In this document: piece after piece, positions 56,075-56,738 of the stretch
Layout: each line of letters opens with the position of its first letter
Position numbering within the stretch: position 1 is the stretch's first letter
Origin: Deltaproteobacteria bacterium
Lineage (GTDB): Bacteria; UBA10199; SBBF01
Assembly (NCBI GenBank): GCA_016183175.1
Contig: JACPFC010000026.1
Span: 41,907-105,906, forward strand
Direction: 5' to 3'
DNA length: 64,000 bases
Notes under the pieces: generated by a model
Databases searched by the model: none
Seen by the model: only the letters and a program-made list of their open reading frames with translations
What the model was told of the DNA's origin: nothing
Program-made: the position numbers and the translations under genes

Positions 56075-56156
56075 TGGTGGATAGTGGATGGTGGATAGTG
56101 GATGGTGGATAGTGGATGGTAAAAACCATTCACCATTCACCATTCACCATTCACCA
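56075..56156. repeat. Heptamer tandem-repeat hairpin element, copy 1 (TGGATRG x6 ... AAAAA ... CCATTCA x4)
   Basis: tggtggatagtggatggtggatagtggatggtggatagtggatggtaaaaaccattcaccattcaccattcaccattcacc folds into a long G·U-containing stem-loop in RNA, between ribBA and ribH. Confidence 0.8.
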
Positions 56157-56166
56157 AGCATGATTA

Positions 56167-56679
56167 TTGAGGCAAGCATCGCGAATCCGGGTTGGCGTCA
56201 AAAAAGGCAAGAAGCCCCGCGTGGCAATCATCGCCAGCCGTTTCAACCCTGACATTTGCGAGGGGTTGCTGAAAGGGGCGAGGGAGGCGCTGAAGGAGGC
56301 GGGGTTTGGCGAGGCGGACTATGATGTTTTTCGCGTACCTGGGGCGTTTGAAATTCCGCTGGCGGCTCGCCGCGTGGCGGCTTGCCGCGTGGCGCCAAAA
56401 AAGCGCTCTGCCGCCAAAAAATATCGCGGCATTATCTGTCTGGGGGCGGTCATCCGTGGCGAGACGCCCCATTTTGAGTATATATGCCGCGCTGTGACCG
56501 ATGGAACGGCGCGCGTTGCGCTTTCTGCCGGTATCCCGATGGCGTTTGGTGTCCTGACAGCCAATACGATCGATCAGGCGATGGCCCGGTCGAGAGCCGA
56601 CGAATACAACAAGGGGCGCGAGGCGGCGGTGACGGTGTTGGAGATGGTGGATCTTTTAGAATCGATAAAGCGTGGATAG
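56167..56679 (+). CDS. ribH: 6,7-dimethyl-8-ribityllumazine synthase
   Basis: ...GAFEIPLAA...CLGAVIRGETPHFEYI... with an internal ~10-aa insertion caused by a 15-bp near-tandem duplication. Its stop codon TAG lies inside repeat copy 2. Confidence 0.85.
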   Translation: MRQASRIRVGVKKGKKPRVAIIASRFNPDICEGLLKGAREALKEAGFGEADYDVFRVPGAFEIPLAARRVAACRVAPKKRSAAKKYRGIICLGAVIRGETPHFEYICRAVTDGTARVALSAGIPMAFGVLTANTIDQAMARSRADEYNKGREAAVTVLEMVDLLESIKRG

Positions 56680-56738
56680 TGGATAGTGGATAGTGGATGG
56701 TAAAAAACCATTCACCATTCACCATTCACCATTCACTG
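56672..56738. repeat. Heptamer tandem-repeat hairpin element, copy 2
   Basis: gtggatagtggatagtggatagtggatggtaaaaaaccattcaccattcaccattcaccattcac, between ribH and nusB. Confidence 0.8.

Follow-up and report, generated by a model that had tools for sequence, protein, structure and literature searches.

Heptamer-tandem-repeat hairpins spanning the stop-to-start junctions on both sides of ribH in an uncultured deltaproteobacterium

Bacterial tandem repeats of heptanucleotides first became known in the early 1990s, with the short tandemly repeated repetitive (STRR) sequences of cyanobacteria. As summarized in PMC4679880, heptanucleotide repeats are the commonest class of long simple-sequence repeat (LSSR) among prokaryotes, and slippage of the polymerase is given as their cause (Mrazek 2007). 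In Beggiatoaceae, Cyanobacteria and Bacteroidetes such repeats are recorded directly before start codons (PMC4679880; bioRxiv 10.1101/2022.06.06.494920), as exemplified by TAACTGA repeats in these three groups (MacGregor 2015, PMC4679880) and by TTTTGAA/TTCAAAA repeats in Nostoc (bioRxiv 10.1101/2022.06.06.494920); MacGregor recorded 169 direct heptamer sets and one inverted set (PMC4679880). Here we analyse two elements in a 64-kb stretch of DNA (contig JACPFC010000026.1; the whole stretch is called the window) from the metagenome-assembled genome (MAG) of an uncultured 'Deltaproteobacteria bacterium', in which heptamer arrays form inverted pairs on both sides of the lumazine synthase gene ribH. 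Inverted heptamer pairs acting as junction-spanning hairpins were not described in the literature searched, and a literature search on the repeat sequence itself gave no match. We put at about even the chance that these elements, and the inserts found at the same place in relatives, are palindromes of tandem repeats that are particular to the lineage, evolve fast and originated on the spot at translation-coupled stop-to-start junctions, and not copies of a defined mobile element.

Both elements have the general form (GTGGATR)n-A5/6-(CCATTCA)4+. Copy 1 (56075-56155) lies between ribBA and ribH, and copy 2 (56672-56736) between ribH and nusB:

54848..56074, plus strand: ribBA (DHBP synthase / GTP cyclohydrolase II), 100% identical to MAG protein P0001; Pfam PF00926 and PF00925
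56075..56120, plus strand: copy 1 left arm, a TGGTGGATAGTGGA-type 14-mer, that is, alternating GTGGATA/GTGGATG, six heptamer units; Tandem Repeats Finder (TRF) period 14, 3.4 copies, 100% matches
56121..56125, plus strand: copy 1 loop, AAAAA
56126..56155, plus strand: copy 1 right arm, (CCATTCA)4 + CC
56167..56679, plus strand: ribH (lumazine synthase); Pfam DMRL_synthase, 1.9e-49
56672..56701, plus strand: copy 2 left arm, (GTGGATA)3 GTGGATG GT
56702..56707, plus strand: copy 2 loop, AAAAAA
56708..56736, plus strand: copy 2 right arm, (CCATTCA)4 + C
56747..57148, plus strand: nusB, start GTG (MGTRRKARE); P0121 100% identical, 133 aa; Pfam NusB at residues 5-131

The paired heptamer-repeat hairpins that an initial annotation had placed on both sides of ribH are borne out by these coordinates and by TRF, which called all four arm arrays (period 7 or 14, 3.9-5.9 copies, 88-100% matches). 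Both elements thus consist of a 7-nt unit in at least three head-to-tail copies, above chance, as in heptanucleotide simple-sequence repeats. The motif CCATTCACCATTCA has 8 matches in the window against 0.58 expected, and TGGATRGTGGATRG has 16 against 1.23; none of 100 shuffles reached either number. Of these matches, 7 and 14, respectively, fall within the two elements, the remaining site being a 2-mismatch match at 42588. Over about 66 nt the copies are identical but for one A/G substitution and one extra loop A; their left arms differ in unit number (six in copy 1, four in copy 2).

Folded as plus-strand RNA, copy 1 reached -46.7 kcal/mol (z -7.6) and copy 2 -33.2 kcal/mol (z -6.7) relative to shuffled sequence, with five G-U pairs in each stem, in agreement with the long, G-U-containing mRNA stems first proposed; the minus strands gave -38.1 and -30.3 kcal/mol. 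Each heptamer contributes one G-U pair, with an additional A-C mismatch where the left-arm unit is GTGGATA. Relative to the complement of GTGGATG, every right-arm unit CCATTCA shows one C-to-T change, and the arm is perfectly homogeneous. Selection on the mRNA strand (G-U versus A-C) was considered as a general rule and rejected: of nine junction hairpins of the clade described below, four were stabler on the sense strand and five on the antisense strand, so that a G-U bias favouring the mRNA is not a general feature. Each stem, of about 30 bp, has its 5' base at or beside the upstream stop codon and its 3' end 5-8 nt short of the TTG or GTG start. Copy 1 begins at the base right after the ribBA stop TAA (56072-56074); in the left arm of copy 2, TAG recurs every 7 nt, giving stops in all three frames.

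The ends of the flanking genes proved informative as to where the repeat came from. The ribH stop TAG (56677-56679) does lie within the first GTGGATAG unit of copy 2, as initially annotated. It had further been supposed that the element invaded the gene boundary and supplied this stop. Alignment with the insert-free outgroup locus L124 speaks against such an invasion: RibH ends in ..SIKRG* in the window and in ..RIKHG* in L124, at equal length, and CGT GGA TAG of the window aligns to CAT GGG TAA of L124. Because the C-terminal length is that of an insert-free relative, the stop is native and the repeat unit was seeded from the ribH end; the first GTGGATAG unit is native ribH sequence. At its other end ribH starts with TTG 56167 (MRQAS...), 11 nt beyond the right arm of copy 1, and this N-terminus is kept in relatives (MRQAS in L206/L208, MKQAT in L124, MKQPT in L121). 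An ATG at 56160 would yield MIIEASIANPG, which resembles the E. coli RibH N-terminus, but it is out of frame and the likeness is a coincidence; a frameshift in ribH was rejected because the in-frame product from TTG 56167, MRQAS...KKPRVAIIASRFN, agrees with the relatives. Within ribH itself, a 15-nt tandem repeat, CCGCGTGGCGGCTCG, occurs in 2.7 copies (56356-56394), encoding AARRVAACRVA; it is present in L121 too (4508-4538) and is thus a clade-conserved coding repeat.

The nusB start had been predicted to fall inside copy 2. The start is instead GTG 56747, 10 nt past the element: the NCBI NusB of the source MAG (P0121) has the 133 aa expected from this codon, the position of the Pfam domain fits it, and all relatives begin MG[STNH]RR, with the consensus MG[STNH]RR[KQ][AS]RE. 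A 151-aa nusB open reading frame (ORF) running from GTG 56693 through the hairpin is an ORF-finder artefact, as it is the 133-aa start that is homologous to relatives. No Shine-Dalgarno sequence precedes ribH or nusB; ribBA has GAGGA. The antisense ORFs MVNGEWF... begin in the right arms and lie opposite Pfam-supported ribBA and ribH, and are spurious mechanical ORFs, as had been suspected.

We compared the two junctions with those of related loci (labelled L121-L125 and L206-L214), taking as the clade those with RibBA identity of at least 91% or NusB identity of at least 76%, and as outgroups those at 73-77%. Coding DNA diverges by 15-25% between these genomes. The outgroups have no insert at either junction. 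L123 shows a GTGA overlap between ribBA and ribH and a 3-nt gap between ribH and nusB; in L124/L125 the first junction is a 4-nt gap and the second an 8-nt ATGGGTAA overlap, and in L211 both are 7-nt gaps. In the clade, five different repeat inserts occupy the ribBA-ribH junction, and inserts are found at the ribH-nusB junction as well:

ribBA-ribH, window: GTGGATR/CCATTCA hairpin
ribBA-ribH, L121: (GTTTAAA/GTTCAAA)5, loop ending in A7, (CCTTGAA)4; hairpin
ribBA-ribH, L122: (TACGTTCW)n then A5; the contig ends within the repeat, before a full second arm
ribBA-ribH, L207: GTGACTN/CACGAGY heptamer hairpin
ribBA-ribH, L206/L208: (GGGCTTG)2 plus divergent GGGGTTA and GGGTTAA; no hairpin
ribH-nusB, L121: (GTGGATA)2 GT AAAAA, then the nusB ATG directly
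ribH-nusB, L207: (GTGGATA)2 GTGGATG GT AAGAT ATG
ribH-nusB, L208-L210: unrelated long hairpin on (GTCAAAA)3 and C/G runs

The comparison of orthologous junctions therefore has two sides: repeat inserts, mostly hairpins, recur throughout a narrow clade, but their sequence differs between relatives. Continuity is confined to the 3' end of ribH, where (GTGGATA)n has two units in L121, three in L207 and four in the window, followed by GT in each; the (CCATTCA)n right arm is found in the window only, L121 and L207 having the left array alone. The nusB start codon is ATG in the outgroups, L121 and L207, and GTG in the window; L208 combines GTG with its hairpin. That hairpin (1690-1795; L209 and L210 likewise) removed the ribH stop and lengthened RibH by 20 residues (..QEVKSQKSKNPPTPPFNKGGEGGI*), and so is a genuine instance of a repeat hairpin changing the end of a protein. 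Outside the clade, a RibH-based metagenome scan found relatives only at 54% identity or less, too distant to trace the history of the junctions and usable as a background set; the three loci examined had short repeats but not this architecture. L122 has further short tandem repeats (1-29 and 1261-1339): (CCCATAA)4 stands just before the ribBA ATG, and the contig ends in repeats on both sides.

The window elements thus resemble the heptanucleotide LSSR/STRR repeats in their 7-nt unit and near-perfect tandem copies, in their intergenic site, in varying in number and presence among close relatives, and in their frequent placement right before start codons that lack a Shine-Dalgarno sequence. They differ in being inverted pairs around a 5-6 nt A-loop that form one long stop-to-start hairpin, and in that the unit sequence at one junction is wholly replaced between relatives.

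On these data we propose an origin in three steps, the direction of gain and loss being taken from a small neighbour-joining tree and parsimony. First, the heptamer holding the native ribH stop (GTGGATA-G from CGT GGA TAG) would have expanded by replication slippage. Because the window, L121 and L207 all share the GTGGATA array at the ribH-nusB junction, it is placed by its distribution in their common ancestor and, on the tree, in that of L208 too. Second, the window lineage would have gained the inverted (CCATTCA)n arm, with both arms homogenised, plausibly by intrastrand template switching followed by slippage. Parsimony weakly favours such a later gain, since the outgroups, L121 and L207 use ATG for nusB and the window uses GTG. 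Template switching is known to create or extend hairpin arms (PMC8794818, PMC13100816); a single event yields or lengthens a perfect inverted arm and makes the two arms uniform, but the process has been described for inverted repeats of rRNA, miRNA and promoters, not for tandem-repeat arms, and here the arms carry a systematic G-T mismatch. Third, the whole arm-loop-arm module would have been copied about 600 bp upstream into the ribBA-ribH junction. Copy 1 is best read as derived from copy 2 in recent times, through secondary copying or conversion, because the two are near-identical while this junction differs in every relative and coding DNA has diverged by 15-25%.

The ribBA-ribH hairpin of L121 suggests how a junction may become palindromic from within. 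Its first left-arm unit, GTTTAAA, equals the native ribBA end GTT TAA A (TRF 100% matches from L121 4219), its right-arm unit TTGAACC is similar to TTGAAAC, with which native ribH begins, and a small palindrome already exists at the junction of the outgroup, GTTTAA-AAAA-TTGAAAC. It looks like an in-place expansion of the stop- and start-containing heptamers around the original A-run. The perfect tandem repeats of Borgs (PMC9879509) are similar in their rapid, recent and independent origin at homologous sites, with partial flanking repeats as apparent seeds; in Borgs, an archaeal extrachromosomal element, the units have a greater length (commonly 18-21 nt or more) and are direct, not inverted.

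The pattern repeats elsewhere in the window, at the nrdR-ribD and rpiB-glyA junctions as compared with L212 and L213. A third junction between these genes holds a structured spacer of another kind:

39448..39535, plus strand: rpiB-glyA insert, a hairpin and, from there up to the glyA ATG, 8/16-nt tandem repeats (GGCACCCA / ACACGGGCACACAGGC)
40779..40891, plus strand: glyA-nrdR structured spacer of about 113 nt, homologous to spacers in L209/L210 and L213/L214
41342..41464, plus strand: nrdR-ribD hairpin filling the interval from stop to start, arms of AAAGTTC/AAATGTC and TTTGAAC heptamers, -35 to -40 kcal/mol

In L212, rpiB and glyA overlap by 4 nt without an insert. At nrdR-ribD, an ACCAGRG/GGTCACK heptamer hairpin occurs in L212 (from the MAG of L121) and a gene overlap in L213, and the heptamer unit family of the window hairpin is that of the L121 ribBA-ribH hairpin.

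Several observations weigh against an origin in place. The two arms are not exactly complementary: given a G-T mismatch in every unit, a simple template switch would not suffice without a further mutation that was then homogenised. Whether the right arm was gained or lost is weakly determined; the L208 hairpin with its GTG start would fit an ancestral hairpin. Slippage does not account for the copying of a module to another junction without flanking homology. Moreover, GTTCAAA units occur both at nrdR-ribD of the window and at ribBA-ribH of L121, and GTCAC-type units at nrdR-ribD of L212, at ribBA-ribH of L207 and at 58573 in the window; unit families shared by non-orthologous junctions hint at transfer between sites. 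Short-read MAG assemblies may, in addition, give wrong numbers of repeat units.

How compact operons might bear such inserts can be proposed from their geometry. The ancestral overlapping junctions imply translational coupling. On the polycistronic rib-nusB mRNA each insert would fold into a stem of about 30 bp spanning stop to start, looping itself out and keeping the two codons as close as in the ancestral overlaps. A terminating ribosome would unzip the stem base and expose the downstream start, so that coupling by termination and reinitiation would be preserved. Looping-out would explain why palindromic inserts survived over unstructured ones. That coupling and looping-out are pure inference counts against the proposal as a whole. 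Copy 2 offers a superficial resemblance to the bypass of T4 gene 60: GGA-UAG stands at the 5' base of the stem (56674-56679), and GGA is again codon 2 of nusB (56750-56752), 73 nt downstream and in the nusB frame. Copy 1 has no matching pair of take-off and landing codons, and the GGA pair of copy 2 is most likely a by-product of the duplicated ancestral ATGGGTAA overlap. UAG arrays like those bound by HutP or TRAP, GGA arrays of CsrA type and Chi-like GATGGTGG motifs were considered as possible parallels.

An origin by mobility was proposed in the initial annotation, which called the elements a REP/MITE-like dispersed repeat (REP, repetitive extragenic palindrome; MITE, miniature inverted-repeat transposable element). 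In its broader form this explanation holds that the elements are non-autonomous mobile hairpins, akin to REPs or REPINs (REP doublets forming hairpins), MITEs or foldback elements, whose enzyme is encoded elsewhere and which prefer stop-start junctions, copies 1 and 2 being two insertions. We regard it as unlikely. It would account for near-identical modules at two different junctions and for the recurrence of heptamer unit families at non-orthologous junctions across clade genomes. Spread from junction to junction does occur in the clade, as the element of about 113 nt shows: its homologues lie between glyA and nrdR in the window, L213 (1-110) and L214, and at a non-orthologous junction, between nusB and the next gene, in L209 (497-623) and L210. 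These spacers share the blocks AAGCG..ATCCGGCTTTGCCGGT..GCGCGGGG ... CGAGTAG ... GGGCCCC..TATA-ATG and have no Rfam match.

A wider survey gives mobility some further support. We scanned 185,579 species genomes for (CCATTCA)3, this one heptamer only, and found arrays at at least 120 loci in many phyla (L001-L120). Among the matches listed, an inverted (TGAATGG)n partner lay within 300 nt upstream in 29 of the 104 arrays with adequate flanks, at spacers of 13-253 nt, and downstream in none of the 104; the window elements have the same polarity, which would be expected of terminal inverted repeats. Gene orientation was rejected as the cause of the 29:0 polarity, since flanking orientations are mixed. 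As a candidate 5'-leader motif beside start codons, (CCATTCA)n showed a weak trend across phyla among the matches listed (28 of 113 against 15 of 95 within 40 nt).

Against mobility, motif searches of the 64-kb window found no third copy of the module, and the hairpin core has no exact match in JGI metagenomes or in viral contigs. A Pfam scan covering 49 of the 54 window ORFs detected no transposase, reverse transcriptase or REP-associated tyrosine transposase (RAYT). By eye, no target-site duplication is seen in the flanks (GGTTTAA before and AAGCATG after copy 1; ATAAAGC before and TGTAGTT after copy 2), and neither copy has the terminal inverted repeats with target-site duplication of a MITE; no head or tail outside the repeats is common to both. 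The left-arm unit is native ribH sequence, present also in relatives that lack the right arm, and the arms of the two copies differ in unit number. With the REPs of Enterobacteria and Pseudomonas, including their bacterial interspersed mosaic elements (BIMEs) and REPINs, the window elements share the character of imperfect intra-operon palindromes without target-site duplication. REPs, however, have a fixed palindromic consensus of 20-40 nt with a conserved 5' head tetranucleotide (GTAG-type), tens to hundreds of copies and a cognate RAYT, whereas the window has only two adjacent copies in 64 kb, with tandem-heptamer arms of variable unit number, no RAYT seen among the 49 ORFs scanned and a sequence that varies between relatives. 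The assignment to dispersed REP/MITE-like repeats is therefore probably wrong. The initial annotation had itself taken an absence of other copies in the genome and of conservation in relatives as pointing to slippage; within the window and the relatives both are largely what we find, except that different repeat hairpins do occupy these junctions in relatives.

It is likewise doubtful, to our mind, that selection has kept the elements as a cis-regulatory RNA device of the rib-nusB mRNA that sets the ratio of ribBA, ribH and nusB products. Possible forms are an intercistronic RNase III site, a 3' stabiliser of the upstream cistron, an attenuator, or a protein-binding array of GGAU(A/G)G spaced at 7 nt. 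The structure is indeed kept where the sequence is not: hairpins of unrelated sequence occupy the ribBA-ribH junction in the window, L121 and L207 (complete sequence). The hairpins span exactly stop to start, and stems of about 30 bp are long enough to serve as double-stranded RNA substrates. REP/BIME hairpins in mRNA can stabilise the upstream cistron, and the window elements, which likewise form mRNA hairpins, may possibly do so. For Beggiatoaceae and Nostoc, an influence of heptamer repeats near starts on expression has been suggested and in part demonstrated (PMC4679880; bioRxiv 10.1101/2022.06.06.494920). Yet the repeat at the ribBA-ribH junction of L206/L208 forms no hairpin, the outgroups have nothing there, L121 and L207 lack a ribH-nusB hairpin, and the stability advantage of the sense strand is inconsistent over the nine hairpins. 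The attenuators suggested in the initial annotation find little footing. A terminator scan called no intrinsic terminator and no U-tract at either element (3' flanks CCAAGCAUG and CUGUAGUUG), so that the G+C-rich stem followed by a U-tract that characterises a terminator or attenuator is missing. Rfam gave no hit at gathering thresholds over the whole window, and relaxed thresholds brought up sub-threshold generic miRNA hairpin models only.

More speculatively, the hairpins might represent a self-propagating foldback element class, with arms of tandem heptamers and an A-rich loop, that colonises operon stop-start junctions, replaces its predecessors there and persists because ribosomes reinitiate across the stem base, in analogy to shunting; we consider this improbable. 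The foldback (FB) transposons of Drosophila have long inverted arms that consist of short tandem repeats and enclose a short loop or none, but they are kilobase-sized and mobilised by a transposase. Their arms are like those seen here; the window elements are bacterial, and no evidence of their mobility was found. If such a class did exist, the 5'-(TGAATGG)n...(CCATTCA)n-3' polarity across phyla would mark the terminal repeats of a group of elements that is widespread yet unrecognised. That short-read misassembly or an amplification chimera made the inverted arrays is hardly credible, for although the MAG is a short-read assembly and related contigs end in or near repeats (L122 at both ends, while the left side of L209 differs from L208/L210), unique junctions connect each array to intact collinear genes, independent NCBI, ENA and Logan assemblies have repeat inserts at the same junctions, and the (GTGGATA)n array occurs in three assemblies.

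The surroundings of the two elements hold further repeats and hairpins. Pfam confirmed rpiB, glyA, nrdR and ribD at 38997-42607, and ribE, ribBA, ribH, nusB and an M17_N-like protein at 54220-57678, with rpsO and pnp farther downstream. The gene at 57679-58296 is assigned to an extracytoplasmic function (ECF) sigma factor through its L121 orthologue, and the ORF at 58321-59253, with zf-HC2 and TPR domains, is probably its anti-sigma factor. Within this last gene a coding heptamer array, CGTTACT/CGTCACT, runs for 5.6 copies (58573-58611), with a unit length that is not a multiple of 3; its GTCAC-type unit recurs in the junction hairpins of L207 and L212. The yceD-rpmF interval of L212 (1100-1215) holds CCCTAAC-like repeats and others of 15 nt. 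Two hairpins in the window are non-repetitive. The first (59585-59654, 33-nt arms) stands between rpsO and pnp, an interval that in E. coli holds the RNase III-cleaved pnp leader, and the second (61811-61936) just past pnp, with 39-nt arms of 90% complementarity, a 48-nt loop and a T-rich run after it.

In practical terms, the inserts mislead ORF callers, here into a falsely long nusB start and antisense ORFs, and they break short-read assemblies. For the biology of the family, the locus and its relatives make up a comparative series in which ancestral overlapping junctions stand beside five different repeat inserts at the same site, with one case of copies of the stop-codon heptamer, one with the direct array only and one full hairpin. 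The series suggests how heptamer repeats arise, how they turn palindromic, and why compact operons tolerate them.

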